Below, in pieces: positions 1,960-49,382 of a DNA stretch of 64,000 nucleotides (positions are counted from its first letter, which is position 1; every line of letters begins with the position of its first letter). The notes beneath the pieces were generated by a model. It was not told the DNA's origin and ran no database searches. It saw only the letters and a list, made by a program, of their open reading frames with translations. Position numbers and translations under genes: made by a program. This DNA is from Acidimicrobiia bacterium (GTDB taxonomy: Bacteria > Actinomycetota > Acidimicrobiia > Spongiisociales > JAENVV01), in the NCBI GenBank assembly GCA_041635475.1, contig JBFKVA010000001.1, positions 64,794 through 128,793 on the forward strand, read 5' to 3'.

Positions 1960-2744
1960 CGGACCACCGTGGTGCGGGCGACCCGGGCGATCGTCTCGAC
2001 ATCTTCGTCGGGGATCTCCCGGTATCCGTCGGCATCGACGACCACCACCATGGGCATGATGGACCTGTCGAAGTCCGGGCCGGAGGTGGCGACATCCTGT
2101 TCGGCGGCCGCGATGAGGGCTCGGAGGCCGAGGTCGATCGCCGCGTCGGCGGTGAGGCCGGTGTCGTAGGCGGCCCGAAGGTACGACTTGGCCTCCCGGC
2201 CCCCGGACCCGGTCGCCCCGAAGGCGGTCTCTTCGTAGCGGCCGCCAACGACGTCGAACGTGAAGAGCCGTCCCTCGGCGGATCGAACGTCGTAGCCGGC
2301 GAACAGGGGAACCACGACGAGGCCTTGCATGGCCATCGGTAGCGCGCTCCGAACCATCCGGGAAAGGTAGTTGGCTTTCCCTTCGAGGCTGAGCCGGGTT
2401 CCCTCGAGCTTTTCGTAGTGCTCGAGTTCGGTCTGGAACAGGCGCACCATCTCCACGGCCAGGCCGGCCGTCCCCGAAACGGCCACCGCCGCGTAGTCGT
2501 CGGCTGCGAAGACTTTGCGCATGCGACGATTGGCCACCGACGATCCTTCCGTCGCCTGCCGATCGCCGATGATGACGACGCCCCCGGCGTGGCGTAGCGC
2601 CAGGACGGTGGTCGCCTCAGGGGCGGGCAGGGTGGTGGTGTCCCCGATCACGCCGACGAGTCGGCCGCCGTGGCCGGTTGCGGCGAGGAGCTCGGTGAAT
2701 CCCCCGGTGGTGTGTCCGGCGAGGCGCCTCAGGTCGTCGATCAT
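1956..2744 (-). CDS. prcB: proteasome subunit beta (with propeptide)
   Basis: 262-aa ORF with a propeptide followed by the catalytic Thr motif ...EATTVLALRHAGGVVIIGDRQAT. Start ATG overlaps the pup stop. Confidence 0.9.
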   Translation of the reverse strand: MIDDLRRLAGHTTGGFTELLAATGHGGRLVGVIGDTTTLPAPEATTVLALRHAGGVVIIGDRQATEGSSVANRRMRKVFAADDYAAVAVSGTAGLAVEMVRLFQTELEHYEKLEGTRLSLEGKANYLSRMVRSALPMAMQGLVVVPLFAGYDVRSAEGRLFTFDVVGGRYEETAFGATGSGGREAKSYLRAAYDTGLTADAAIDLGLRALIAAAEQDVATSGPDFDRSIMPMVVVVDADGYREIPDEDVETIARVARTTVVR

Positions 2745-2917
2745 TGCCCGCCCTTCTGGACGTAGTTGCGGACGAACTCCTCGGCGTTCTCCTCCAGGAC
2801 GGAGTCGATCTCATCGAGCAGTTCGTCGATCTCCTCGACCTGGCTCTGGATGGAGACGGTCTCGGACGACTCCTCTTCGGTTGATCGGGATCGCTGGATT
2901 CGTTCGCGGTCACTCAT
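2741..2917 (-). CDS. pup: prokaryotic ubiquitin-like protein Pup (58 aa)
   Basis: Not in the ORF track (<60 aa). Manual translation of the minus strand gives MSDRERIQRSRSTEEESSETVSIQSQVEEIDELLDEIDSVLEENAEEFVRNYVQKGGQ*. It has the C-terminal GGQ and acidic helix typical of Pup, and sits between dop and prcB. Its ATG overlaps the dop TGA (ATGA) and its TGA overlaps the prcB ATG. Confidence 0.85.
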   Translation of the reverse strand: MSDRERIQRSRSTEEESSETVSIQSQVEEIDELLDEIDSVLEENAEEFVRNYVQKGGQ

Positions 2918-4383
2918 TCGGCACCTCGCAGCGCTTCGAGCAAAGTGTTGACATCGTCTGCTTCGTCCAAGAGGTCCCCGACGTGGGCCCGGGTCCCCCT
3001 CAGCGGGTCAAGCATAGGCACCCGCTTGTAATGCCCCTGTTGGTCGTCGAAGATCATGGAGTCCCAGTTGGCCGAGACGAGGTCTCGGCCGAACTTCTCG
3101 ACGCACCGGCCCCGGAAGTACGCCCGGGTCGTCTCGGGCGGCGCCACCACCGCGGCCCGTACCTGCTCGGCGCTGAAGAGGCGCTGCATGGCGCCCTTGC
3201 CCACGAGACGCTGGTAGATGCCCCGGTCGTTGCGCAGGTCGTGGTATTGGAGGTCCATCGTCTTGATCCGGGCGTCGCTCCAGTCCGCTCCCCGCTCGAT
3301 GGCTCGCCGGTACAGGCGCAGCTTGGCTGCCCAGTCGAGGCGGTCGGCGACGTGATCCGGGCCCTGCTCGAGTCCCTCCAGCAGCGACGTCCAGGCCTCC
3401 AGCAACCCGCCGGCCCAGGCCAGGTCCGCGTGCTGGGCGTAGTCGGAGAGCCAGCGGTGGTACTGCCACTGCATGTCGAGCGCCGTGAGCTTCCTCCCAT
3501 CCGCCAACAGGAGGGGCTTGGCCAGGCCTGTGTCGCGGCTCACGTGCCGGGCGGCACCCACCGGGTGGGCCAGGGCGAGGTCGTCGGACAGGACACCATC
3601 CTCCAAGGCCGCCAGGAAGAGCGCCAGGCAGCCGAGTTTCACGTAGGTCTGCACCTCCGACCTCGTCGCATCGCCGAAGATGACATGCAGGCGTCGGTAG
3701 CGGTTGTCGGCGTGGGGCTCGTCGCGCGTGTTGACGATGGGACGTTTGAGGGTCGTCTCGAGCCCGACGACAACCTCGAAGAAGTCCGCCCGTTGCGTCA
3801 GCTGGAAGCCGATGTCGCCGTGCCCCGCCTCTCCACCCACCTTTCCACCACCCGAAATGAGCTGACGGGAGACGAGGAAGGCCGGGAGAGCCTCGACGAT
3901 GCGCTCGAACGGAAGGGACCGGGCAAGAAGGACGTTCTCGTGGTAGCCGTAGCTGTTGCCCTTGCCGTCGGAGTTGTTCTTGTAGAGGGCGAGTTCCTCA
4001 CCTTCCCGGAGCAGCTCCTGGGCGGAGGCCATCGCAATCCGGCAGACCTCTTCGCCGGCCACGTCGTAGAGCGCGGCGGTGAGTGGGTCGTCTGCTTCCG
4101 GGGAGCTGTACTCGGGGTGGGCGTGGTCGACGTAGAACCGAGCCCCGTTGCTCAGGACCGTGTTCACCGCAGCCGCCTCGTAGTCGGGTTGGAAGGCTTC
4201 GATGATGGTCTCGCGGGCGTCCCGCCGCGGGTGCTCGGTGTCGTACGACCACGAGAAGCGTCCTCGCGCCTGGCTCACCGAGTTGACGACGAGTGCCGAG
4301 GCCAGGGAGGGATTGAAGTCGATGGCGTTGCGGATGTGGATCCCGAACTCGGTTTCCGTACCGAGCACCTTCGGGATGGCCAT
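2914..4383 (-). CDS. dop: Pup deamidase/depupylase Dop
   Basis: 489-aa [22 protein letters not shown]...with the long Dop-specific insertion loop. Position is immediately upstream of pup. Confidence 0.85.
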   Translation of the reverse strand: MAIPKVLGTETEFGIHIRNAIDFNPSLASALVVNSVSQARGRFSWSYDTEHPRRDARETIIEAFQPDYEAAAVNTVLSNGARFYVDHAHPEYSSPEADDPLTAALYDVAGEEVCRIAMASAQELLREGEELALYKNNSDGKGNSYGYHENVLLARSLPFERIVEALPAFLVSRQLISGGGKVGGEAGHGDIGFQLTQRADFFEVVVGLETTLKRPIVNTRDEPHADNRYRRLHVIFGDATRSEVQTYVKLGCLALFLAALEDGVLSDDLALAHPVGAARHVSRDTGLAKPLLLADGRKLTALDMQWQYHRWLSDYAQHADLAWAGGLLEAWTSLLEGLEQGPDHVADRLDWAAKLRLYRRAIERGADWSDARIKTMDLQYHDLRNDRGIYQRLVGKGAMQRLFSAEQVRAAVVAPPETTRAYFRGRCVEKFGRDLVSANWDSMIFDDQQGHYKRVPMLDPLRGTRAHVGDLLDEADDVNTLLEALRGAE

Positions 4384-6089
4384 CAGAGGTAGTGGCCGGT
4401 TTGCACCGTTTCGACCGTACGCTGTTCCTCAGCCCTCCCACCGGCAACGGTGCGCACATACGCGATTCGCTCGCCCTTCCTCCCGGAGACCTTGGCCCAG
4501 TCATCGGGGTTGGTGGTGTTCGGGAGGTCCTCGTGCTCGGTGAACTCCTGGCGCACCGAGTCGGTGAGGTCCTCGGTGGTGATTCCGCCGTCGCCGCCGT
4601 CCAGGAGGCGCTTGATGGCGTTCTTCTTGGCCCGTCGAACGATGTTCTCGATCATCGCTCCCGAGGCGAAGTCCTTGAAGTAAAGGAGCTCCCGGTCACC
4701 CCCGGCGTAGGTGACCTCGATGAACTCATTGACGGGACTCTTGGCGTACATGCGCTCGACGACGTCCGCGATCCGGGCCTGGCGATGTTCGGCCTCCTCA
4801 CCGAACTGGTCGGTGTTGAACGGTAGGGAGGCGGGCAGGTAGATGGAGAAGATCTGGCGGGCCGCCTCCTCGTCGGGCCGGCTCACCTTGATTTTCACGT
4901 CGAGGCGTCCGGGCCGCAGGATGGCAGGGTCGATGAGGTCCTCGCGGTTGGAGGCCCCGATGACGATGACGTTCTTGAGGGCCTCCACCCCGTCGAGCTC
5001 CGACAAGAGCTGTGGGACGATGGTCGACTCGACATCCGAGGAGATCCCGGTGCCGCGGGTCCGGAAGAGGCTGTCCATCTCGTCGAAGAACACGATCACC
5101 GGCACGCCCTCCTCGGACTTCTCGCTCGCCCGCTGGAAGATGAGGCGGATCTGCCGTTCGGTCTCACCCACGTACTTGTTGAGGAGTTCCGGCCCCTTGA
5201 TGTTGAGGAAGTAGGAGCGGGCGTCCGTGTCGCCCGTCCGCTCCCTCACTGCGGCGGCCAGCGAACTCGCCACGGCCTTGGCGATGAGCGTCTTGCCGCA
5301 GCCGGGGGGCCCGTACAGGAGCACGCCCTTGGGCGCTTCGAGGGCGTAGTCGTCGAACAGGCTCTTGTGCACGTACGGCAGTTCGATGGCGTCCCGAATC
5401 GCCGTGATCTGGTCGGCCAACCCGCCGATGTCGTCGTAGCCGACGTCGGGCACCTCCTCCAGGACGAGTTCGTCCACGTCGGGGCGCGGGACCTTCTCGA
5501 GGGCGACCGATGACTTCCCATCGATGCGAACATGGTCGCCGACCCGCACGGGGACACCGGCGAGGGCACCGGAGATGAACACGACCCGTTCGTCGTCACC
5601 CCGCCCGAGGACGAGAAGTCGGTCCTCGTCGAGCCGGTCCTTGACGGTCACGACATCGCCCAAGCGGTCGTACTCGAGCACTCGCACGATGTTGAACGCC
5701 TCGTTGAGGAGAAGGTCCTGCCCCGGCTTGAGTTCCTTGACCTCGATCGAAGGTTGGGCGCTCACCCGCAGGCGCCGCCCACCGGTGAGCACGTCGACAC
5801 CGCCATCGTCTGCGACGCCGAGCACGATTCCGAAGGCGGACGGGGGGGCGGTGAGCCGATCCACCTCTGACCGGAGGAGTGCCAGCTGCTCCCGGGCCTC
5901 CTGGAGCAGGGACGCCAGCTTGTCGTTGCGATCGCGCAGGCGGTCCACCATGTCCTCGGCGTCGGACAGCTGTCGTTCGAACACGCGACGGTCGGGCGTC
6001 GTCGACAGCGCGTGGCGGAGCCGGGCGAGCTCGTCCTCGAGTCGCTGGATCTTCGCCTGGGCGAGCGGGTCGCCGTCGTCTCGTTCCAC
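4383..6089 (-). CDS. arc: proteasome-associated AAA ATPase ARC/Mpa
   Basis: 568-aa ORF with an N-terminal coiled coil, Walker A GPPGCGKT, and C-terminal ...GHYL (GQYL-like proteasome docking motif). Confidence 0.9.
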
Positions 6090-38944: not shown

Positions 38945-40522
38945 TCAGCGACGGCCGATACCGCGCTCCTTGAGTTCTTGGAGGATGGCCTCGAGTGAGG
39001 CATCACCGGCGAACGACGGCTCACTCTCCTTCTCCTTCTCGTCCTCGCGCTCGAACTCGCGGGTGCGGGGACGGCGGCGCCGGGGCCGATCCTCCGAGGG
39101 TGCGGCCGACTCCGGCCGAGGACGCGGTGACGGCCGGCTCGACGGCTCCACGACGCGCTCCTGGTAGCCGGGTGCGGCTTGCTTGATCGACAGCGACACC
39201 CGTCGGCGCTCACCGTCCATCTCGGTGATCTTGACCTTCACCACCTGTCCCAGCGAGAGCTCCAGCTCGGGTGACTCGACCCGATGCATGGCGATCTCCG
39301 AGACATGGACGAGTCCTTCGACGCCGTCACCCACGGTGACGAACGCCCCGAACGGGACCGTCTTGGTGACGGATCCGTCCACGATGTCGCCCACGCCGTT
39401 GGCCTCGGCAAACGCCTCCCACGGGTCCTTCTGGGTCTGCTTGATCGAAAGCGAGATGCGTTCCCGGTCGCGGTCGACCTCGAGCACCTTGACGGTGACC
39501 TTGTCGCCGACCTTCACGACCTCCGACGGGTGGTTGACGTGCTGGTACGACAGCTCGGAAACGTGGACGAGTCCATCCATGCCGCCGAGGTCGACGAACG
39601 CACCGAAGTTCACGACCGACGAGACCACGCCCTCGGCGATGTTGCCTTCGGCCAGGTCGTCGAGGAACGCCTGGCGCTGCTCGGCCTGCTCCTCCTCCAA
39701 GTAGGCGCGGCGGGAGAGGACGACGTTGTTCCGATTGCGGTCGATCTCGATGACCTTGGCCTCGATCGTCTCGCCGATGTACGGGTCGAGGTCACGGACC
39801 CGGCGCAGTTCGACGAGCGATGCCGGGAGGAACCCGCGCAGCCCGATGTCCACGATGAGCCCACCCTTGACAACCTCGATCACCGGGCCGCTCACGGTCT
39901 CGTGGGCAGCGGCGATCTGTTCGATGCGGCCCCAGGCGCGCTCGTACTGGGCCCGCTTCTTGGACAGGATGAGGCGACCTTCCTCGTCCTCCTTGTCGAG
40001 GACGAGCGCTTCGATCTCGTCCCCCTCGGAGACGACCGTGCGCGGATCGACGGCCTTGCGGATCGACAGTTCGTTGAGAGGAATGACCCCTTCGGACTTG
40101 AAGCCGATGTCGACGAGGACCTCGTCGCGGCCAATGGCGACGACAACCCCTTTGACGATGTCACCCTCCTCGAAGTTGAGCATCGTGAGCGAGAGCGCCT
40201 CCTCGAAGTCCACGTCGTCGGGCAGGGCGCTCAGGTCCTGGGCTTCGATGGCGGGGCGGAGGGTGGCGGGCACCACGATCGCGGGGTCCGCATCGGGCGG
40301 TGCCGCCGCCTCGGGAGCCGGCGCGGGGGCCGTCTCGGCTTCGGCGGCCGGGGCCTCGATCTCGGTCTCTGCCGTCTCGGCCGGCTCCGGGTCGCCGGTC
40401 TCGGTCACCTCGGTGACGGGGTCCGGGGTCGGGGTCTCGGCTGCTTCGGTGTCGGCGGACGCCTGGGCGGTGTCTGCCGTCTCGGGCGCTGGATCCTCCA
40501 GCGCGTGGTCGTGTTCTGACAT
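38945..40522 (-). CDS. rpsA: 30S ribosomal protein S1 (with ~90-aa acidic low-complexity N-terminal extension)
   Basis: Four S1 domains (GDIVKGVVVAIGRDEVLVDIGFKSEGVIP..., etc.). Starts MSEHDHALEDPAPETADTAQ.... The listed ORF's further N-terminus overlaps polA and is discarded. Confidence 0.85.
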   Translation of the reverse strand: MSEHDHALEDPAPETADTAQASADTEAAETPTPDPVTEVTETGDPEPAETAETEIEAPAAEAETAPAPAPEAAAPPDADPAIVVPATLRPAIEAQDLSALPDDVDFEEALSLTMLNFEEGDIVKGVVVAIGRDEVLVDIGFKSEGVIPLNELSIRKAVDPRTVVSEGDEIEALVLDKEDEEGRLILSKKRAQYERAWGRIEQIAAAHETVSGPVIEVVKGGLIVDIGLRGFLPASLVELRRVRDLDPYIGETIEAKVIEIDRNRNNVVLSRRAYLEEEQAEQRQAFLDDLAEGNIAEGVVSSVVNFGAFVDLGGMDGLVHVSELSYQHVNHPSEVVKVGDKVTVKVLEVDRDRERISLSIKQTQKDPWEAFAEANGVGDIVDGSVTKTVPFGAFVTVGDGVEGLVHVSEIAMHRVESPELELSLGQVVKVKITEMDGERRRVSLSIKQAAPGYQERVVEPSSRPSPRPRPESAAPSEDRPRRRRPRTREFEREDEKEKESEPSFAGDASLEAILQELKERGIGRR

Positions 40523-40667
40523 AGGGTGTGGGTTACCTCCGGGGGGAACTCCTTGCGGCGCGCGCCGAGCGCTGCCGAAGGGCGAGTGGAGCATACCGGT
40601 GCCGGGCGAGAAACACCAACGGCGTGGGCCGCCGGGCCCCGGATCGCGCTCACCCGACCCGGTCGGG

Positions 40668-43265
40668 TCAGCCCTTGGCAGCCGCCAGGTCGGCGCCACT
40701 GGCCGTGTCGACGACGAGGGGCACGTCGAGCTGGGCGACAGCCGACATCGTCTCGGCGAGGAGCGCGGCGGTGGCGTCCACGTCGGCCTCCGGGCACTCG
40801 ACGACGAGCTCGTCGTGGACCTGGAGCAGCATGACGGCTTCGGAGTCCCGCAGGCGTTGGTCGACCGCCACCATCGCCAGTTTGATGATGTCGGCCGCGG
40901 TTCCCTGGATGGGGGCGTTGAGGGCCATCCGCTCCCCCATCTGACGTACCCTCCAGTTGTCCGATCGCAACTCGGCGAGGTAGCGGCGCCGCCCGAACAG
41001 GGTCTCCGTGTAGCCGCGCTGCTTGGCCTCCTCCACGACCCCTCCCAGGAACGCCTTGACCGACCCGAACCGGCCGAAGTAGGCGTCGATGAGCTCCTGG
41101 GCCTCCCCCCGCGGGATCTCGAGCCGATCGGCGAGCCCAAAGGCCTCCATGCCGTAGAGGAGCCCGAAGTTGACCGCCTTGGCTCGGTTGCGCATCTCGG
41201 TGGTCACCTCGTCGAGGCGGACGCCGTTGACGGCGGCCGCGGTTGCCGCATGGATGTCGAGGTTCTCCCGGAAAGCCTGCGTGAGGCCGGGATCGCCGCT
41301 CATGTGGGCCAGGATCCTCAGCTCGATCTGTGAGTAGTCGGCGAGGACGAAGCGCCAGCCGGGGCGGGGTATGAAGGCCTGCCGCACCGTCCGCCCGGAC
41401 TCGGACCGGATCGGGATGTTCTGCAGGTTCGGGTTGTCGGAGCTGAGCCGCCCGGTGGCCGAGCCCATCTGGTTGAAGGTCGTGTGGATTCGTCCGTCGG
41501 GACCGATGAGCGGCAGGTAGCCGTCCACGTACGTGGAGCGGAGCTTCTCCAGCTCCCGGTAGCGGAGGAGCCCGTCGACGATGGGATGGTCGAGCTTGGC
41601 CAGGACCGAGGCGTCGGTGGACGGCACCCCCTTGGACGTCTTCTTGACGACGGGGAGGCCGAGTTGGTCGAACAGGACCTCCCGCAACTGCTGGGTCGAG
41701 TTGACGTTGAAGGGCCCCCCGGCCGCGGCGTGGATGGCGACTTCGAGGCCGGCCAACTCTTCCCGGAGTTCGTCGCCGAGGGCTTCGAGGTAGGCCCGGT
41801 CGACCCCGATGCCCTCCTGTTCCATCCCGGCCAGGACCGGGATGAGCGGAAGCTCCGTCCGGTCGAGGATGTCACGGCCGCCCTGCTCGTCGATCTGTTC
41901 GGCGAAGGCGTCGGCCAAGCGGCGGATGGCGATCGCTTCCGCACCAGCCGTGTCCAGGTCGGGCCCTCCCGCGAAGTCCAGTGTGCCTTGTTCGGCGGCC
42001 CCCTCTCCCTCGGGAGCGAGTTCCACCCGCAGGTGCCGGCTGGCGAGGTCGCGGAGGTCGAAGCTCCGCGTGGCCGGGTTGAGGACGTAGGCCGCAAGCG
42101 CAGTGTCCATGCTGATGCCCTCAAGGGCGACCCCCAGCTCCAGCAGGGCCCGGACGACCGGCTTGAGATGGTGGCCGACGACCCGTACCGAGGGGTCCTC
42201 GAGGCGGCCGGCAAGGGCGTCGAGGAACTCGATGCCCACGAAGGTCGGCGTGTCGTCGTGCACGATGAAACCGGCCAGGTCGTCCAGGTCCCACACCGGG
42301 TGGAGGACGAACTCGGCCGCCCCCGCCGCCGCCAGGACAGCGCCGCCGGAGGTGGCGGTGGTGACCGTGGCCTCGATGGTCTCTTCGTGGTAGTCGATCT
42401 CGGGGTGGAGCCGTTTGAGGTCCTCCCAGATCGAGTGGAACTCGAGGGTGTCGACGAGCTCGGTCATGGCGTCTTCGTCCCAGTTCGTCCACGCCAGGCC
42501 GTCGGGGCTGGGGACCTCGAGGTCGGTGACGATGCGCATGAGGTGCCGGTTGCGGAAGGCGGCGTCCCGGTGCGTCGAGAGGTTCTCCCGCAGCTTCGGG
42601 GTGAGTTCGTCGAGGTGCTCGTAGATCCCATCGATGCTCCCGTGGTCGGCGAGGAGCCGCGACGCGGTCTTCTCCCCCACCCCGGGCACCCCGGGGAGGT
42701 TGTCGGAGGTGTCGCCCCGCAGGGCCGCGAACTCGAGGTACCGCTCGGGGGCCAGGCCGTACTTCTGCTCGATGTAGGCCGGGTCGGCCACGACTGACTC
42801 GGACACGCCGCGGATCGGGTAGAGCACCGTGACCCGATCGTCGACCAGTTGGAACGTGTCGCGGTCGCCGCTGACGATGAGGACGTCCCAACCCTCGCCT
42901 TCGGCCCGCCGGGCCAGGGACCCGATGAGGTCATCGGCCTCGAAGCCGCTTCGGCTCAGCTGGGTGACCCCCATGGCGTCGAGGAACTCCCGGATGAGCG
43001 GGAGTTGCGCCTTGAAGGTGTCCGGTGTGGGCTTGCGCTGCGCCTTGTAGTCGGGGTACTCGTCGCGCCGGAACGTGTTACGCGACTCATCCCAGGCCAC
43101 CGCCATCCGGTCGATGTCCTGGTCGGCGAGGAGCTTCACGAGCATGCGGGCGAAGCCGAACGCGGCGTTCGTCACCTGGCCCGAGGCGGTCATGAGCGTG
43201 TCGGGAAGGGCGAAGAAGGCCCGATACGCCATCGAATGGCCGTCAACGAGGGCGAGGGTCGGCAT
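40668..43265 (-). CDS. polA: DNA polymerase I
   Basis: 5'-3' exonuclease N-terminus. Polymerase motifs RRAAKAVNFGLLYGM and QVHDELVVE. Confidence 0.9.
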   Translation of the reverse strand: MPTLALVDGHSMAYRAFFALPDTLMTASGQVTNAAFGFARMLVKLLADQDIDRMAVAWDESRNTFRRDEYPDYKAQRKPTPDTFKAQLPLIREFLDAMGVTQLSRSGFEADDLIGSLARRAEGEGWDVLIVSGDRDTFQLVDDRVTVLYPIRGVSESVVADPAYIEQKYGLAPERYLEFAALRGDTSDNLPGVPGVGEKTASRLLADHGSIDGIYEHLDELTPKLRENLSTHRDAAFRNRHLMRIVTDLEVPSPDGLAWTNWDEDAMTELVDTLEFHSIWEDLKRLHPEIDYHEETIEATVTTATSGGAVLAAAGAAEFVLHPVWDLDDLAGFIVHDDTPTFVGIEFLDALAGRLEDPSVRVVGHHLKPVVRALLELGVALEGISMDTALAAYVLNPATRSFDLRDLASRHLRVELAPEGEGAAEQGTLDFAGGPDLDTAGAEAIAIRRLADAFAEQIDEQGGRDILDRTELPLIPVLAGMEQEGIGVDRAYLEALGDELREELAGLEVAIHAAAGGPFNVNSTQQLREVLFDQLGLPVVKKTSKGVPSTDASVLAKLDHPIVDGLLRYRELEKLRSTYVDGYLPLIGPDGRIHTTFNQMGSATGRLSSDNPNLQNIPIRSESGRTVRQAFIPRPGWRFVLADYSQIELRILAHMSGDPGLTQAFRENLDIHAATAAAVNGVRLDEVTTEMRNRAKAVNFGLLYGMEAFGLADRLEIPRGEAQELIDAYFGRFGSVKAFLGGVVEEAKQRGYTETLFGRRRYLAELRSDNWRVRQMGERMALNAPIQGTAADIIKLAMVAVDQRLRDSEAVMLLQVHDELVVECPEADVDATAALLAETMSAVAQLDVPLVVDTASGADLAAAKG

Positions 43266-43322
43266 CGGTGCGGAGCGTAGCTCCCCACCGGGCGGGAGCG
43301 ATAGGTGCGCCTGACGCCGTCG

Positions 43323-43598
43323 TCAGTCGTCGAAGGAGGCGAGGAGACGTTCGAGCTCGGCCTCCCGTGCCCGGAGGCGGTCCCGCGTCCTGGCCAGCGC
43401 CTTCTCGAACCGTGGAAGGTCGCCCTTCACCTCGCCGTAGAAGGCGCGATCGTCGGCGTTCCCGGCGATGGCGTCCCGATGGGCGTCGTCGTGGATGTGG
43501 CGATGGTAGTCGACCTCGGCGGCCAGGCGACCTTCATCCGCGCGCAGGACGTCGATCTCGTCCCGGAGTCGAAATGCCTTGCGCTCGATGCGTCCCAT
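43323..43598 (-). CDS. hypothetical protein (charged, His-rich; 91 aa)
   Basis: ORF between polA and the tRNA. Reasonable codon bias, no recognised domain. Confidence 0.4.
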   Translation of the reverse strand: MGRIERKAFRLRDEIDVLRADEGRLAAEVDYHRHIHDDAHRDAIAGNADDRAFYGEVKGDLPRFEKALARTRDRLRAREAELERLLASFDD

Positions 43599-43638
43599 TG
43601 GTGTGGTGGTCCGACTCCAGGTCGCCTACGATGCCGAC

Positions 43639-43721
43639 CGCGTGCCCGGCCGGGATGGCGGAATGGTAGACGCGACGGACTCAAAATCCGTTGCCCGCAA
43701 GGGCGTGCGGGTTCGAGTCCC
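43639..43721 (+). tRNA. tRNA-Leu (anticodon CAA)
   Basis: Manual fold: acceptor GCCGGGA/TCCCGGT, D-arm GCGGAATGGTAGACGC, anticodon stem ACGGA/TCCGT with loop CTCAAAA, long variable arm, T-arm GCGGGTTCGAGTCCCGC. Confidence 0.85.
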
Positions 43722-43883
43722 GCTCCCGGTACGAAGTGAGGTCGGCCTTGTGCCGGCCTCGATTCGTCTTGGCGTGGGACACACGAGCCCGTCGGCGAAG
43801 CCGCGGGTTCGCTACGACGAGCGCAGCGAGGAGTGCCGAGCACCGGCGCAGCCGGGCGCAGGCCGTCCCGCTCCCGGTACGAA
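43722..43883 (+). repeat. decayed tRNA-Leu 3'-end copies, including a 19-bp exact direct repeat of the tRNA 3' end
   Basis: gtcccgctcccggtacgaa occurs at ~43707-43725 (genuine tRNA 3' end) and again at ~43865-43883. Between them lies a T-arm-like gaagccgcgggttcgctacgac fragment. Confidence 0.6.
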
Positions 43884-43885
43884 AC

Positions 43886-43945
43886 CCCGTTTTCCCCCGC
43901 GGTAGGTCCGCCCTGGACGGACAACGGGCGGGGGAAAACGGGTCG
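43886..43945. repeat. ~58-nt hairpin-forming repeat, copy 1
   Basis: cccgttttcccccgc-ggtaggtccgccctggacggacaacg-ggcgggggaaaacggg. 15-bp outer stem plus inner stem. Paralogous to 46141-46200. Confidence 0.6.
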
Positions 43946-43948
43946 CGG

Positions 43949-44200
43949 TCAGGAGTACTCGCTCACCGGATAGATCTCGTCGGCTACGAGGCCGTGGGCT
44001 TCCCGATGAACCGTGTGTGCCGCGTCGGCGTCGGGAGCGTCGACCAGGCAGAAGATCCTTCCAGCCTCTTCATCCACCCAGTACCGCAGGTAGCTCACCG
44101 CGTACTTGTCCTGCGTGGCCAGATCGGCTTGATGGGCACCGGCCACATCACTCGCCGAGACTCCGCCTTCGATGTTGTGGACATCCATGAACAGGGGCAT
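43949..44200 (-). CDS. DUF4242 family protein
   Basis: MPLFMDVHNIEGGVSASDVAGAHQADLATQDKYAVSYLRYWVDEEAGRIFCLVDAPDADAAHTVHREAHGLVADEI, typical DUF4242. Confidence 0.65.
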   Translation of the reverse strand: MPLFMDVHNIEGGVSASDVAGAHQADLATQDKYAVSYLRYWVDEEAGRIFCLVDAPDADAAHTVHREAHGLVADEIYPVSEYS

Positions 44201-44274
44201 TGCGTGTTCCTCCATCTGTCTCTGGCCCCGGCGGATTCCGGGGCCTTCCGCGGATGAAAGCCGACGGCTGTTTG

Positions 44275-46114
44275 ATGGGGCGTTTGATGAGTCCTATCGT
44301 TGGTGGCATCCCGTCGTCCAGCCTCACCATTCACCTCCTCGGACGTCCCGCCATCGTCCAAGGGGACGGGGAGCCGTATCGCATTCGCAGCCAGAAGAGC
44401 TGGGGGCTCCTCGCCTACCTCATCCTGGCCGAACGCCCGCCCAGTCGCCCACAGCTCGCGACGCTGCTGTTCTCCGAGGCGAATGATCCACTCCGAGCAC
44501 TCCGCTGGAGCCTGGCTGAGATCCGCCGGGCACTCGGCGATTCGGCTCGGCTGGAGGGCGACCCGGTCGAACTCCATCTCGCCGAGGGCACGATCGTGGA
44601 CATCGATGTGGTGACTCGCGGTGCGTGGACCGACGCGGTCCTCCTGCCCGGCCTGGGCCAGGATCTCCTGGAAGGCACGAACATCAGGAGCGCCGCAGCG
44701 TTCGAGTCCTGGCTCGTGTCGCAGCAGCACCACTTCGGCGCAGGCTCGGAGGCCATACTCCACGAGGCGTCTCTGGCTGCCTTGACGCGGGGCGCCGTCC
44801 AGGACGCCACCGACTACGCCGTGCGACTCGTCTCGATGAAGCCGTTCGACGAGAACCACCAGGCCCTGCTCATCAGGTCGTATGAGGCGGCTGGGGACCA
44901 CGAGGCAGCCCTCAGACAACTCGCCATCTGCACCGAGCTGTTCGAGCGGGAGCTTGGCGTTTCTCCAGGCGTCGCCGTTCACGACGCCGCCCAGGCACCA
45001 CCGACTCACGACCACACGCCGACAGACGCGACATCCATCGAGGCCCTCCTCGAGGCCGGATCGGCCGCGGTGGGGGCCGGTGCCATCGAGGCCGGGGTCC
45101 GATCGTTGCGCGCCGGTGTCGGCCTCTCCGACGCCGGCGGCGTCGGAGAGGCTGCGGGTGAGGTCGCGCCTCGCCCTGGCGGAGGCATTGATCCACTCAC
45201 TGCGCGGCAGGGACGAGGAGGGAATCGCCGCGCTGCACCAAGCCGGTGAGATTGCGCTTGTCCACGGCGAGAACGACCTGGCCGCGGCAGTCAGGGCTGA
45301 GCTCGGCTATGTCGACTTCCTCAGGGCCCGGTACGACAGGGCCGAGCGCTGGCTGCTCGACGCACTCCGACTCGGTGGCCGGACGGCTCCCACCGCGGCG
45401 AAGGCCGCCATGTACCTCGGTTCGGTGGAGAGCGATCGAGGCAACTACCTCCGGGCCATGAACCACTTGACGGAGGCCCTGGCAGCGACGAAGACCACCG
45501 GTGACCGGCGAGGCGAGGCGTACGCGTCGTCCATGGTCGGCCGGATCCACCTCCTGCGAGGGGACCTGGATGGGGCCGCTCGTGAGCTCGAGACGTCGAT
45601 CGAGCTCGCCGAGTCCGATCACTGGCTGGCCTTCCTGCCTTGGCCACAAGCTCTCCGGGGGGAGGTGGAACTCGTCCACAACGACCTCGATGGTGCATCC
45701 GAGCGCCTGGAACAGGCATTCGCCCGCGCCTGCCAACTCGGGGATCCGTGCTGGGAGGGAATCGCCGCTCGCGGGATCGCCCTTGCCACCGAGATGGCCG
45801 GGGAACCGGCGCGGGCGCTCGAACTCCTGGGCGACGCTCGTGCCCGGTGCAACCGCCTGTCGGACCCGTATGTGTGGCTCGACGGCTACATCCTGGACTC
45901 GCAGTGCACGCTCGGCCTCCGCCACGGGCATCCCGAAACCTCCCGCTGGATCGGACAGCTCCACGAACTGGCGTCGCGGACCGGGATGCGGGAACTCGTC
46001 GTTCGATCGCTGGTGCATCGGGCCGCCATGGGTGGCGTCGGAGACCTGGAGGCTGCCGCGTTGCTGAGGGCGGAGATCGACAACCCCGCCCTCGATCGGG
46101 TCGTCCCGACGTAG
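44275..46114 (+). CDS. SARP/AfsR-family transcriptional regulator (OmpR-type wHTH + BTAD + TPR), interrupted by an apparent frameshift near 45140-45170
   Basis: ORF 44200..45249 holds the wHTH/BTAD region (LTIHLLGRPAIVQGDGEPYRI...LRALRWSLAEIRRAL...YEAAGDHEAALRQLAICTELFERELGVSPG). ORF 44882..46114, in the +1 frame, continues from the junction with TPR-like repeats (RLRSRLALAEALIHSL...). No plausible independent start for the second part. Confidence 0.6.
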
Positions 46115-46140
46115 GCGGCGCGGGTCCGGTCCCCAACCTC

Positions 46141-46200
46141 TCGTTTTCCCACGCGATATGTCCGCCCTGGGCGGACAACGGGCGTGGGAAAACAGGAATG
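46141..46200. repeat. ~58-nt hairpin-forming repeat, copy 2
   Basis: ctcgttttcccacgc-gatatgtccgccctgggcggacaacg-ggcgtgggaaaacagg. ~85% identical to copy 1, with a compensatory c:g to a:t stem change. Confidence 0.6.
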
Positions 46201-46252
46201 GGAGTGGGGGCACGCTCAGGTTTCGCGGGCGACCGACCGATGCCATATACGT

Positions 46253-47443
46253 ATGTCAGGCATCACCGTCGTCTCGCCATCGTCCGAGTTCACCGAGCGG
46301 CTCACCCTGGTGCTCCTCGGCGAAGCCCATCTCACCATCACATCGTGGTGGGACGAGTTGGTGGCCGCCCAACCCGAGTACGCCACCGAGGTGATCCAGG
46401 AGACCGAACCCTCTCTCATCGTGCTCGGACCGGGACTCGACCGCGACACCGTGCTGGACCTGGCAGCCGAGCTGCACCACAGGATGCCCGAGGTGTCCGT
46501 GGTGGAGATCGCCGAGCCCGACCCATCCCTGTTCCCCCAGGCGATGAGCGTCGGCATCAAGGACATCATCGCCGAGGATGCCCCGTTCGACGTGCTCCGA
46601 GACCGGATCAACCGGGGGCTGGCGGTCTCCGAACGCCTCAGCGCCCGCCGCACGTCCATCAAGGACGTCGAGCGGGGGTCACTCGTGGTCGTGGTCGCCC
46701 CCAAGGGTGGCACCGGCAAGACCTCCACCATCACCAACCTGGCGATCGTCTTGAGCCAGCAGTACCCCGGTGAGGTGGTGCTCGTCGACCTGGACCTCCA
46801 GTTCGGGGGGGTCTGCGAGACCCTGCTCCTCGAACCGTCGTACACCATCTCCGACGCCGCCCAGGTCCGGGGTCCCCTCGACGCCACCACGGTGAAGGCG
46901 ATGCTCACCCCCCGTGAAGGACTGTTCGTCCTGGCCGCCCCCGGCTCCCCCGAAGAGGCCGATGTGATCGACTCGGCCCTCGTGGAGACCGTCGTCTCAT
47001 CGCTCACCGCGGCGTTCACGTGGGTGCTCGTCGACACCGCGGCCGGCATCAGCGAGGAAGCGATCTGGGTGATCGAGAACGCGTCCGACATGCTTCTCCT
47101 CGTGTCGGAGGACGTCCTCTCGCTCACCTCGATGCGCAAGACGATGGGGCTCCTCGATCAGCTGGGGTTCACCGCATCGGCCCGCACCCTCATCCTCAAC
47201 CGGGCCAACAGCAAGGTGGGCCTCGACACCCAGTCGGTCGAACGGTCCCTCGGCGCCCGCGTCGACGTCGAACTGCCATCCACCCGCCTCGTGCCGATCA
47301 GCCTCAACCGGGGTGAGCCGTACGTGGAAGCCCGACCCGACTCGACCATCTCCCGCCGGATCGCCGACATCGCCGTCCGGCTCACCAACTCGCGGGAGCG
47401 ACGCCGGTCCTCCCTCGTGGGGGGGACGTCGGCCGGACACTGA
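46253..47443 (+). CDS. TadZ/CpaE-like protein: N-terminal pseudo-receiver + ParA/MinD-type ATPase
   Basis: Deviant Walker A VVVAPKGGTGKTSTITNLA. N-terminal ~130-aa receiver-like fold lacking the phospho-acceptor Asp. No other tad/flp genes in the window. Confidence 0.7.
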   Translation: MSGITVVSPSSEFTERLTLVLLGEAHLTITSWWDELVAAQPEYATEVIQETEPSLIVLGPGLDRDTVLDLAAELHHRMPEVSVVEIAEPDPSLFPQAMSVGIKDIIAEDAPFDVLRDRINRGLAVSERLSARRTSIKDVERGSLVVVVAPKGGTGKTSTITNLAIVLSQQYPGEVVLVDLDLQFGGVCETLLLEPSYTISDAAQVRGPLDATTVKAMLTPREGLFVLAAPGSPEEADVIDSALVETVVSSLTAAFTWVLVDTAAGISEEAIWVIENASDMLLLVSEDVLSLTSMRKTMGLLDQLGFTASARTLILNRANSKVGLDTQSVERSLGARVDVELPSTRLVPISLNRGEPYVEARPDSTISRRIADIAVRLTNSRERRRSSLVGGTSAGH

Positions 47444-47566
47444 AGCCCCGGCCGGCCAGACGGAGCCTCTCTTGTCCCACGAATGGTGGGTGAACAAGGA
47501 CCAAGAGTGATAGCCTGTGGACCCGGCCCATGCAGGGTGAGGCTGGCCCAACGCTCGGAGGGTGGT

Positions 47567-48568
47567 ATGACCTTGCCTGAATGGCTCAACGGAAGCGACC
47601 GCCATACCGGGCTGTGGCTCGTCCTGGGCCTCTCGCTCCTGCTGATCCCGGCCGCGGCGTGGGCGGCGGGAGGGACCACGACCGGCGTCGTGATCCTCCT
47701 GGCGGTCCCGGTGGCGGTGGCCGGTGCCGCCCTCGGCACACGGGCGGGGGCCTGGACCGGGCTGGCCGCCGGCGCCCTGGCTGCGCTCGTTCCGTTCTCG
47801 GTGGACCTGGGAACGGCCCAGTCGCCAACCCGGGCGGTGCTACGCCTGGTGACGTTCGTCCTCGTGGGCTGGTTCGTCGGCTACGTGAGAGCCGGCCTCC
47901 TCGAACTGTCCCGCTCCCGATCCCGCTTCCTCTCCACGGTGAGCCATGAGCTGCGGACCCCCCTCACGTCGATCGTCGGGTACTCGGAGATCCTCCACGA
48001 GCGTCGCCATGAACTCGGCGACCCGGCGGTCGTGGAGATGGTCGAGCACCTGCACCGCGAGAGCTTCCAGATGAGCCACACCCTCGACCAGATGCTCGTG
48101 GCGGCCCGAATCGACACGGGTTCCCTGCCGGTCGACGCCCGGCCGGTCGACCTGCGGGCAACCCTTCAGGAGGTCCTTGAGCACCTTCCACCCATCGGCC
48201 TCCCGTTAGACGTCGACGTCGAGGGAACGGCCGTGGCCGTCGCCGATCGCCTCCGGGTGACACAGATCTTCCGCAACCTCCTGGTTCACGTGAGCGAGGT
48301 GACGGAGAGCGCGACAGCCGAGGTTGCCATCTCGTCCAACGGCGAGGCCGTCGTCGAACTCACCTACACCGGCGACTCCCTCCTCGCCGACCCCACCTTC
48401 CGCCTCTTCGCCCCGCTGTTCAGCCAGGGACCCCGGGTGGACATGGGGGTCGAGCGGTGGCTCCCGCTCGCGGTCTCCAAGCAGCTGGCCCGTCTCATGG
48501 GCGGGGACCTGGACCATTTCTCCCACGGTCCGACCTCGACGTTCCGGCTCCTCCTGCCCGCGTCCTGA
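47567..48568 (+). CDS. membrane histidine kinase with intact HisKA but degenerate ATP-binding domain
   Basis: 3 TM segments. H-box STVSHELRTPLTSIVGYSE. N-box RNLLVHV (Asn replaced by His). G1/G2 glycine boxes not recognisable. Confidence 0.65.
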   Translation: MTLPEWLNGSDRHTGLWLVLGLSLLLIPAAAWAAGGTTTGVVILLAVPVAVAGAALGTRAGAWTGLAAGALAALVPFSVDLGTAQSPTRAVLRLVTFVLVGWFVGYVRAGLLELSRSRSRFLSTVSHELRTPLTSIVGYSEILHERRHELGDPAVVEMVEHLHRESFQMSHTLDQMLVAARIDTGSLPVDARPVDLRATLQEVLEHLPPIGLPLDVDVEGTAVAVADRLRVTQIFRNLLVHVSEVTESATAEVAISSNGEAVVELTYTGDSLLADPTFRLFAPLFSQGPRVDMGVERWLPLAVSKQLARLMGGDLDHFSHGPTSTFRLLLPAS

Positions 48569-48602
48569 GCGCGAAACACTTCCCGACGCGACGTTGACGA
48601 AC

Positions 48603-49382
48603 ATGTGTTCGATGTCGTATCGTCCCCGGATGGACGACCTCAGGGCAGAACTCGACCTCCTCGAGCGGCGGTACGGGTCCGTCGCGGACGTCGCGGACGT
48701 CACCCGGCTCCAGATCGCCCGCCAGCGTCATAACCACGAGTTGGACCGTGTCAACGCGGAGTTGGACGAGCTGTTGGTACGGCGGCGGGTGACCGTCGAC
48801 TCGATCGAGCGCCTCATCGCGCTGGAGCGCGAGATCCTGCGACGGGCCATCGACGGGGAACGCCGGCGTCGACGGGAGGGCTGGTCCCCCACGCCGATCC
48901 TGGGGTTCCGGGCGTGGACCATCGAGCGCGGCCGCCTCCACGGAGCCGTCGAACCGTGGCTCGGTCTCACGATGGAAGCGACATGCCGGACGGTCACCGC
49001 CCAGGACGAGGTTCCCCACTCCGACGGTCGGTGCGGGGCCCCGGCGTGCGGTATCTACGCCCTCAAGCGGGCCATCGACATCCAGGACGTCACCGGCTGG
49101 CCCACCGAACACCTGGCCCTGGGGATGGTGGCGCTCACCGGCAAGGTCGTCGAGCACGCCCTCGGGTACCGCGCCCAGCGGGCCCAGGTCGTCGCCCTGG
49201 CCGTCCAGCACCCGGACGGCGTCGTGTTCGTCCCCCACCCGGTCGACCTGTGGCCGATCCTGGACGGGGCCGGTCCAACCCGGGACGTCTTCGGCGCCAT
49301 CGACCCCTACCCAGCCATGTGCCAATGGTTGGAGGTACAGAAGGAGACGCACGAATGGACATCGGTGAACAGGACCGCGTGA
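48603..49382 (+). CDS. hypothetical protein: N-terminal coiled coil + C-terminal Cys/His-containing domain
   Basis: Start ambiguous (48603 MCSMS / 48630 MDDLRAEL). Charged heptad-like N-terminus. C-terminal ...GRCGAPACGIYALK...HPDGVVFVPHP.... No known domain recognised. Confidence 0.5.
   Translation: MCSMSYRPRMDDLRAELDLLERRYGSVADVADVTRLQIARQRHNHELDRVNAELDELLVRRRVTVDSIERLIALEREILRRAIDGERRRRREGWSPTPILGFRAWTIERGRLHGAVEPWLGLTMEATCRTVTAQDEVPHSDGRCGAPACGIYALKRAIDIQDVTGWPTEHLALGMVALTGKVVEHALGYRAQRAQVVALAVQHPDGVVFVPHPVDLWPILDGAGPTRDVFGAIDPYPAMCQWLEVQKETHEWTSVNRTA

Follow-up and report, generated by a model that had tools for sequence, protein, structure and literature searches.

Genomic islands can be mapped through a regenerated target gene and a displaced fragment of it, as far as the Islander report (PMC4383910) sets out the approach, and tRNA gene fragments can arise from integration (PMC9897764). 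Integration into tRNA genes has been assigned to 3'-end and D-loop sublocations, after Williams 2002 in the short form given by a later preprint (bioRxiv 10.1101/2020.11.02.365908). Cis-mobilizable elements (CIMEs) and their accretion, e.g., in elements related to ICESt1, have been reviewed (PMC5704250), and the genomic islands at ssrA in Dehalococcoides are arranged in tandem and bounded by 3'-end repeats, 15 of them being without an integration module (PMC3146451). Here, we analyzed a 64-kb stretch of Acidimicrobiia DNA (termed the window; feature coordinates are window positions), in which an intact tRNA-Leu(CAA) gene beside polA forms one boundary of an accessory region. The tRNA gene is followed by a 132-nt noncoding insert (termed the unit) and by a 2.25-kb islet, in which two genes, DUF4242 and SARP, lie between hairpin repeats. 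We propose, with a probability of about 0.6, that the locus was built up as integrative elements, now decayed and CIME-like, accreted in tandem at a tRNA-Leu(CAA) hot spot. This proposal builds on the anatomy of the locus, the empty sites in relatives, the variation in copy number, the anomalies in composition and divergence, and the lack of a nearby integrase.

The tRNA-Leu(CAA) flank and its 132-nt unit

An earlier note on this DNA, which had described an integration scar anchored in the tRNA gene, reported that the exact 19-nt 3' end of the tRNA recurs ∼158 bp downstream. The 19-mer (GTCCCGCTCCCGGTACGAA) indeed has an exact second copy and occurs exactly twice in the 64 kb; the start-to-start spacing is 148 nt, and the last 3 to 4 nt (GAA) fall outside the tRNA, just past its end. 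Since only ∼0.03 matches are expected by chance, even with 3 mismatches, and since two or more copies were obtained in 0/100 shuffles, the repeat is not due to chance.

Alignment to a related locus, L093, with blastn revealed the boundaries of the insert. Window positions 43604 to 43732 align to the L093 tRNA and positions 43865 to 47443 to L093 positions 2106 to 5682, with breaks exactly at 43732/43865, so that 43733 to 43864 is an exact insertion between the tRNA 3' end and the second 19-mer copy. On the left, the functional tRNA gene is followed by insert-borne DNA that starts with a terminator-like hairpin (the single site passing the terminator scan, 43737 to 43761), and on the right, the second copy is followed by the ancestral hairpin flank, a layout that would be expected for attL and attR. 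The earlier note had taken this second copy for the left boundary of the DUF4242-SARP cargo; it closes instead the separate 132-nt insert, and the cargo is bounded by repeats that contain the hairpins. The relatives thereby reveal two insertions, each bounded by its own repeats.

We found five states of the tRNA flank among the window and its relatives, plus a sixth variant (L086, described below). In L091, the tRNA is followed after 11 nt by the hairpin and then by an unrelated minus-strand gene. In L093, the order is tRNA, hairpin, DUF4242 (minus strand), an intact SARP orthologue of 608 aa (plus strand), hairpin, MinD-like ATPase, orf48324, and trpA, and neither L091 nor L093 has the unit. 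The window and L087 have the L093 arrangement plus one copy of the unit and a histidine kinase (HisK) gene. L001 contains 3.1 tandem units (period of 155 nt, 99% matches), GAAGTGAGGTCGG, ∼3.3 kb of other cargo (LamG-domain and M73-like secreted proteins), orf48324, and trpA, and L002 contains one unit with a decayed repeat (GTCCCGCTCCCaac) and a partial second core, followed by orf48324 and trpA. Examination of the polA-tRNA-Leu junction in relatives, a check that the earlier note had suggested, thus revealed empty sites: the unit is absent from L093 and L091, and DUF4242 and SARP are absent at this locus from L001 and L002. L087 is an independent contig of a metagenome-assembled genome (MAG), is 99.7% identical to the window, and reproduces the arrangement of tRNA, insert, hairpin, and DUF4242, which argues that this arrangement is not an assembly artifact.

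Between the two 19-mer copies lies a T-arm-like fragment, as the earlier note had noticed (GCGGGTTCG at 43803 to 43811). It belongs to a core that takes up the ∼100 nt preceding the repeat and is ∼75% conserved in the three loci that contain it (window, L001, and L002; alignment A1). In this core, a hairpin termed A is followed by CGGGTTCGMTACG, and the two together resemble the variable arm of the tRNA, the 5' strand of its T-stem, and half of its T-loop. The T-arm-like part is separated by a gap of 42 to 51 nt from the rest of the tRNA 3'-end copy (GTCCCGCTCCC). CGGGTTCG and GTCCCGCTCCC are invariant in the unit, hairpin A shows 2 compensatory pairs among the 3 species (RNAalifold), and nhmmer found the unit confined to this locus and not dispersed. 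The first 13 nt of the 5' part of the unit (GAAGTGAGGTCGG) are the same as the 13 nt that follow the repeat array in L001 (2/1000 shuffles); this sharing between the flank following the tRNA in the window and that following the array in L001 suggests successive insertions at the tRNA, in which older material would have been moved distally.

Conservation of this kind raises a different possibility, namely, that the unit of 132 to 155 nt functions as a structured RNA, either a small RNA or a trailer similar to a tRNA, which is kept by selection and varies in copy number through slippage. It would be cotranscribed with tRNA-Leu or transcribed after it, and its 3' end would mimic the acceptor and T-stem of a tRNA. 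The ∼75% identity of the core in three species that are nearly saturated at synonymous sites, the compensatory pairs in hairpin A, the invariant segments, and the restriction to one locus would all fit such an RNA. The comparison covers three independent sequences only, the fold of the whole unit is weak (z, −2.2) with a covariation term of ∼0, a terminator separates the tRNA from the core, and L093 and L091 dispense with the unit. A search of the region and of the whole window with Rfam returned tRNAs only, so that neither the unit nor the hairpin matches a known RNA family, and no promoter-like site was found for the unit. We consider a functional RNA highly improbable as the explanation of the unit.

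The DUF4242-SARP islet and its hairpin repeats

We then analyzed the islet. As the earlier note had stated, a DUF4242 gene and a gene for a SARP-type regulator lie between the hairpins (Table 1), and there are no recombinase or transfer genes between the islet repeats. The DUF4242 protein is similar to SCO4226, a characterized Ni-binding protein with a ferredoxin fold (PMC4186839), and its likely start at position 44200 gives 83 aa, as in homologues. In the SARP sequence, BTAD (3.3e-09) and C-terminal TPR (1.1e-11) domains were found, a winged helix was not detected at E<0.01, and homologues carry the name SARP in the JGI annotation. The two genes are divergent, with their own intergenic control region between them.

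The repeat flanking the two genes is real and palindromic, with 89% identity between its copies at 43888 to 43942 and 46142 to 46196; it measures 55 nt, not the 58 nt first reported, and these are its only copies in the window. The islet repeats of L093 are longer (85 nt, 92% identity, L093 positions 2122 to 2206 and 4373 to 4457; 85 to 93 nt overall). They include the whole hairpin and start inside the acceptor stem of the tRNA (CCCGGTAC), reaching leftward into CCCGGT of this stem (1/1000 shuffles) and rightward ∼25 nt into the 3' end of DUF4242. Beside hairpin 2, the L093 counterpart retains CCCGGT..ACAACCCCG (1/1000 shuffles), and the window has a decayed tRNA 3'-end remnant, GCGGGTCCGGTCCC. 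The hairpin itself had been described as a paralogous repeat on both sides of the islet. It sits directly after the tRNA in both L091 and L093 and is a palindromic element that normally follows tRNA-Leu(CAA), not one specific to an integrated element.

The folding energy of each hairpin is about −40 kcal/mol (z, −3 to −6.7), and the palindrome holds two nested inverted repeats. Both hairpins are stable without a U tract, and neither passes the terminator scan. The two copies of one genome resemble each other more closely than copies from different genomes do, a sign of concerted evolution. The covariation found is one compensatory pair, not above shuffles, which argues that the palindrome is conserved as sequence and does not support the hairpin being an RNA. 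The hairpin could act as a recombination site, a protein-binding site, or a terminator.

We also considered that the hairpins might belong to a dispersed family, resembling either repetitive extragenic palindromes (REP) and miniature inverted-repeat transposable elements (MITE) or the attC sites of integrons, and flank the islet by coincidence, or that the whole pattern stems from chance or misassembly. The nested inverted repeats of the palindrome speak for the former, and short-read MAG assemblies can collapse or duplicate repeats. A search with nhmmer found no further copy of the hairpin in the window or in ∼1.5 Mb of loci, including L001, L002, L093, and L094, and we rejected the dispersed REP/MITE reading. 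The cores of attC are 5' RYYYAAC ... GTTRRRY 3'. The hairpin, 5'-GTTTTCCC...GGGAAAAC-3', has the polarity 5'-GTTTT...AAAAC-3', opposite to the R''/R' boxes of attC; the cargo genes are divergent, and there is no integron integrase gene (intI), so that the integron reading was rejected as well. The arrangement recurs in the independent assemblies L087 and L093, and chance is excluded by the shuffle tests. We therefore regard these explanations, taken together, as extremely improbable.

Evaluation of the composition of the islet, in which the earlier note had suggested looking for a sudden shift in GC content or codon usage, revealed no bulk GC shift, only a dip at third codon positions. The GC content at these positions is 0.742 in DUF4242 (z, −4.3) and 0.81 to 0.82 in SARP (z, −1.6 to −2.1), compared with 0.871 ± 0.030 in 41 window genes, and it is typical in the genes for the MinD-like ATPase, HisK, and orf48324. 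To gauge divergence at synonymous sites, we compared the third codon positions of residues that are identical in both sequences. For the window versus L093, the identity at these positions is 0.744 (n = 578) in the islet versus 0.599 (n = 1164) in flanking core genes (Fisher p = 1.6e-9), and the MinD-like ATPase is intermediate (0.667, p = 0.03). In core genes, the window, L093, and L001 are about equidistant, as judged from polA (identity of 0.77 for window-L093, 0.81 for window-L001, and 0.79 for L093-L001). The higher synonymous identity of the islet indicates that it was shared between the window and L093 lineages more recently than the core genomes diverged.

The SARP gene of the window is a pseudogene. 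An extra nucleotide at ∼45148, missing from 5/5 intact homologues, shifts its frame, and all four differences between the window and L093 at this place (the insertion and three substitutions) turn an imperfect inverted repeat into a perfect palindrome. Template switching at quasi-palindromes yields such perfected palindromes, and the frameshift looks like a mutation of this type or may else be an assembly error, the site being covered by one assembly.

We then looked at the DUF4242-SARP pair in other loci. It is widespread and conserved, with >1640 SARP homologues at ∼60% identity. The module is also present in L094 (9212 to 11812), L095 (5050 to 8104), L096 (1 to 2395) and the similar loci up to L099, and L100 (4691 to 6824), with identities of 56 to 69% for SARP and 78 to 87% for DUF4242, and the L001 genome carries the pair 285 kb away, beside tRNA-Asn. 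In 4/5 sampled contexts, less than 400 nt separate the pair from a tRNA gene (for Leu, Asn, or Arg, the fourth being unidentified), and four Logan contigs all start inside the T-arm of the unidentified tRNA. Repeats resembling att sites around the pair near other tRNAs (L094 and L096) were not significant. This proximity to four different tRNA genes would be explained if the two modules were nonautonomous mobile DNAs of an undescribed type, a reading that we find quite improbable. The unit would then be a miniature integrative element (or a tRNA-like RNA gene) made of a terminator, a mimic of the tRNA variable arm and T-arm, and a tRNA 3' end, which would insert and amplify at tRNA-Leu(CAA). 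DUF4242-SARP would move like a cassette or like an integrative mobile element exploiting Xer recombination (IMEX), with the palindrome that follows the tRNA as the recombination site for a host-encoded recombinase.

Integrase search, variable region, and proposed history

Neither a tyrosine nor a serine recombinase is encoded within ∼10 kb of the feature, and every annotated gene between 35.8 and 55 kb belongs to a nonrecombinase family or has no family hit (Pfam and NCBIfam). The earlier note held that the integrase had been lost; none is indeed present nearby, and the loss itself is not demonstrable, an integrase acting in trans or homologous recombination being possible. In scans of viral sequences, neither the unit nor the strict hairpin pattern gave a match; matches to the tRNA 3' end were phage tRNA-Leu(TAA) genes of low GC content only, and matches to a relaxed hairpin pattern were unrelated palindromes. 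Four IMG/VR contigs (L111, L113, L118, and L121, ∼64% GC) share a near-identical palindrome, CCGTTTTCCCCTGGGGGGCATAAGTCAATTACCCGGCGCAGGGGAAAACGG, whose interior is unrelated to the window hairpin. A metagenome scan for the unit returned 5 matches, all due to chance and located in coding DNA without tRNAs, and blastn against phages and plasmids gave nothing beyond tRNA ends. No cognate element of the type known for CIMEs was recovered in these viral, plasmid, and metagenome searches.

The variable region extends from 43733 to ∼48.6 kb, where the conserved backbone resumes at orf48324 and trpA. The earlier note had counted TadZ among the core genes; the TadZ-like ATPase and HisK genes are both absent at the locus from L001 and L002, and HisK is also absent from L093. 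HisK corresponds to an indel (window positions 47444 to 48592 versus L093 positions 5683 to 5758), around which we found no direct repeats. What stands of the integration scar in that note is the tRNA-anchored accessory region with iterated, partly decayed copies of the tRNA 3' end, no integrase, and empty sites in relatives; its boundaries had been misassigned.

Several observations weigh against an accretion of integrative elements. The excess identity between the window and L093 is graded (0.84 in DUF4242, 0.72 to 0.76 in SARP, and 0.67 in TadZ), with no step at hairpin 2, and the DUF4242-SARP pair is widespread and conserved, without att-like repeats in its other contexts. Only 6 to 8 nt of the islet repeat belong to the tRNA; the other ∼85 nt lie outside the tRNA, with ∼25 nt of them in the 3' end of DUF4242, an extent that is atypical for att sites in tRNA genes and equally compatible with a RecA-dependent Campbell insertion. 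The conservation of the unit core, with its covarying hairpin, could reflect a function other than that of a scar. Finally, the viral, plasmid, and metagenome collections searched yielded neither an integrase nor an element bearing attP nor a circular junction.

Since the gradient lacks a clean step at hairpin 2, homologous exchange of a larger tract is possible. More generally, the locus could be a hot spot of homologous recombination, where the hairpin downstream of the tRNA was duplicated as a terminator for SARP, gene contents were swapped by RecA between the polA/tRNA and orf48324/trp anchors, and homologous insertion of the Campbell type, together with unequal crossing-over and gene conversion, left the repeats behind as by-products. 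The excess identity, which reaches TadZ and, at the amino acid level, orf48324, would agree with such exchange, as would the different gene content that each of three loci (window, L001, and L002) has between these shared anchors, the HisK indel without flanking repeats, the entry of the islet repeat into the coding end of DUF4242, and the lack of a nearby integrase. Homologous recombination leaves unexplained why repeats start inside the acceptor stem of the tRNA and why an exact copy of the tRNA 3' end closes the 132-nt insert, which also brings a replacement terminator. As far as two published descriptions go (PMC4383910; PMC9897764), these features are the signature of site-specific integration targeted to a tRNA, and we judge a purely homologous origin unlikely.

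We propose the following history for an accretion of integrative elements, in which insertion by site-specific recombination, the circular intermediates, and any mobilization in trans are inferred. In one event, a small element would have recombined into the 3' end of the tRNA gene, regenerating the tRNA and bringing its own terminator, and the original 3' end (the 19-mer at 43865) would have been displaced downstream. The 132-nt noncoding DNA would be what is left of this element, with a conserved core resembling a copy of the variable arm and T-arm of a tRNA, and the number of units (0, 1, or 3) would have been altered by recombination, slippage, or unequal crossing-over between the flanking repeats. 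In another event, a circular DNA with DUF4242 and SARP would have recombined in Campbell fashion into a target comprising the very 3' end of the tRNA gene and the hairpin behind it, so that a segment of ∼55 to 93 nt was duplicated as attL/attR-like repeats. With the recombinase lost or acting in trans, the remnants would have become CIME-like. Later, gene conversion would have homogenized the hairpin copies, the tRNA remnant next to hairpin 2 would have decayed, and SARP would have been inactivated in this strain.

Table 1. Positions in the window of the tRNA anchor, the two insertions, and the adjacent genes
Feature	Position	Strand	Basis or remark
tRNA-Leu(CAA), anchor	43649-43732	+	ARAGORN; Rfam RF00005, 61.2 bits
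Direct repeat, copy 1	43717-43735	+	tRNA T-stem 3' strand, acceptor 3' strand, discriminator, plus GAA
132-nt noncoding insert (unit)	43733-43864	+	With following repeat, 148-nt period
Terminator-like hairpin with T-rich tail	43737-43771	+	5' part of unit, just past tRNA
Hairpin A and T-arm-like GCGGGTTCG	43787-43811	+	Alignment A1; RNAalifold
Direct repeat, copy 2	43865-43883	+	Displaced tRNA 3' end, attR-like for the unit; then ancestral flank (hairpin)
Hairpin 1	43886-43942		Left islet repeat; repeat reaches ∼43970, into DUF4242 3' end
DUF4242/SCO4226-like nickel-binding protein gene	43949-44215	-	Pfam PF14026, 7.8e-26; NCBIfam NF033706
SARP-type regulator (BTAD and TPR), pseudogene	44287-46114	+	Pfam; +1 frameshift at ∼45148-45149
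Perfect 15+1+15 palindrome (31 nt) at SARP frameshift	45122-45152		Comparison with L093
Decayed tRNA 3'-end remnant GCGGGTCCGGTCCC	46120-46133	+	Just left of hairpin 2; 40/1000 shuffles
Hairpin 2	46142-46196		Right islet repeat; repeat reaches ∼46225
Ssd/CpaE-like MinD-family ATPase (TadZ-like)	46253-47443	+	Pfam, NCBIfam; outside the repeat-bounded islet
Histidine kinase (HisK)	47483-48568	+	Pfam, NCBIfam; outside the repeat-bounded islet

Genomic context and comparison with known systems

The window has a high GC content (0.687), and the closest loci to its polA locus are from Acidimicrobiia MAGs. Its gene order is uvrB, CBS, rpsA, polA, hyp91 (a 91-aa gene), tRNA, the feature described here, the Ssd/CpaE-like MinD-family ATPase, HisK, orf48324, and trpA-B-F-C...E. 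The same tRNA-Leu(CAA) adjoins polA in 17 related loci, and its neighborhood with hyp91 and polA is kept across Acidimicrobiia, the class-wide order being the trp operon converging on tRNA-Leu, with hyp91 and polA on the far side of the tRNA (trp operon -> <- tRNA-Leu, hyp91 -> polA). In L087, the tRNA gene (positions 430 to 513, versus 43649 to 43732 in the window) shows two base differences in the anticodon arm (ACGGC CTCAAAT versus ACGGA CTCAAAA), which would unpair the last base pair of the anticodon stem and may reflect either variation between strains or an error in sequencing.

A contig of the same species (L086, positions 1 to 2100; GCA_041624325.1) is 98% identical to window positions 39654 to 43657, and the homology ends at nucleotide 9 of tRNA-Leu(CAA). 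Past this break, it contains a gene for 64 aa, a Fic/Doc gene, and an IS481-family transposase gene up to the contig end, and ARAGORN found no tRNA there. This contig may carry an island at a 5'/D-arm sublocation or may be chimeric.

The uncharacterized gene orf48324 (251 aa, near polA and uvrB) has its true start at ∼48627 and ends at 49382, and orf48324-like genes directly follow hyp91 in L089 and L092. In the window, L093, L001, and L002 alike, the orf48324 homologue has a conserved palindrome, CGAACATGTGTTCG (window positions 48598 to 48611), preceded by TTGAC, on its upstream side. We take it to match the LexA (Cheo) box of Gram-positive bacteria and actinobacteria; if it is a LexA box, orf48324 is likely an SOS gene.

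In 14 more distant Acidimicrobiia loci (L004 to L009, L011, L013, L015 to L018, L020, and L073), a strongly conserved element of ∼100 nt, absent from the window, lies between the trpA 3' end and tRNA-Leu(CAA) (e.g., L008, 7412 to 7524, minus strand). Six pairs of its closing helix of 13 bp (GCAACGGCCACCG/CGGTGGCCGTTGC) show compensatory changes, its C-rich loop (CCGCATCCCCACTCCCCCCACTCCCTGG) is invariant, and 11/24 predicted pairs show double changes; the element has no Rfam match. This element is a candidate for an undescribed structured RNA.

The tRNA-Leu(CAA) gene beside polA is thus a strain- and species-variable insertion hot spot, with at least five states among close relatives, in the poorly studied Acidimicrobiia, a group known almost only from MAGs. 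Knowing the exact boundaries aids annotation: the tRNA 3' fragment is not a gene, the regulator is pseudogenized, and an accessory segment lies between the core polA and trp genes. The locus also illustrates that very small remnants without an integrase can persist and vary in copy number. Should the unit or the cassette between the hairpins turn out to be mobilized in trans, the known integrative elements would gain a minimal kind; as the evidence stands, the locus is an ordinary and well-illustrated example of how islands decay and accrete, a familiar route to accessory DNA.

Compared with known systems, the locus has in common with tRNA/tmRNA genomic islands an intact tRNA that delimits one end, a direct repeat of the tRNA 3' end that delimits the opposite one, empty sites in related genomes, and a deviant codon composition of the cargo, and the repeat starts at the 3' strand of the T-stem (unit) or is an asymmetric 3' end (islet). 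It differs from them in having no integrase, in that one insert is only 132 nt long and noncoding, and in that the islet repeat lies mostly downstream of the tRNA. With CIMEs and the Dehalococcoides ssrA islands, it shares tandem, repeat-bounded modules past one target gene, a strain-variable content, and the absence of integration and transfer genes with retention of att-like repeats. Unlike for CIMEs, no functional partner element or integrase was seen in the sampled relatives, and the modules of 0.13 and 2.25 kb are far below typical CIMEs in size. Integron cassettes and IMEX resemble the islet in carrying cargo without an integrase between imperfect palindromes that have nested inverted repeats and a central spacer, whereas here the polarity is opposite to that of attC, the genes are divergent, intI and attI are absent, the hairpin is unlike dif, and the islet is anchored at a tRNA. 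Finally, the islet consists of the same two genes, SCO4226-like and BTAD-TPR SARP, as the module in L094, L095, L096 to L099, and L100; at this locus, the pair is divergent, flanked by repeats, and relocated to tRNA-Leu, and its regulator is frameshifted.

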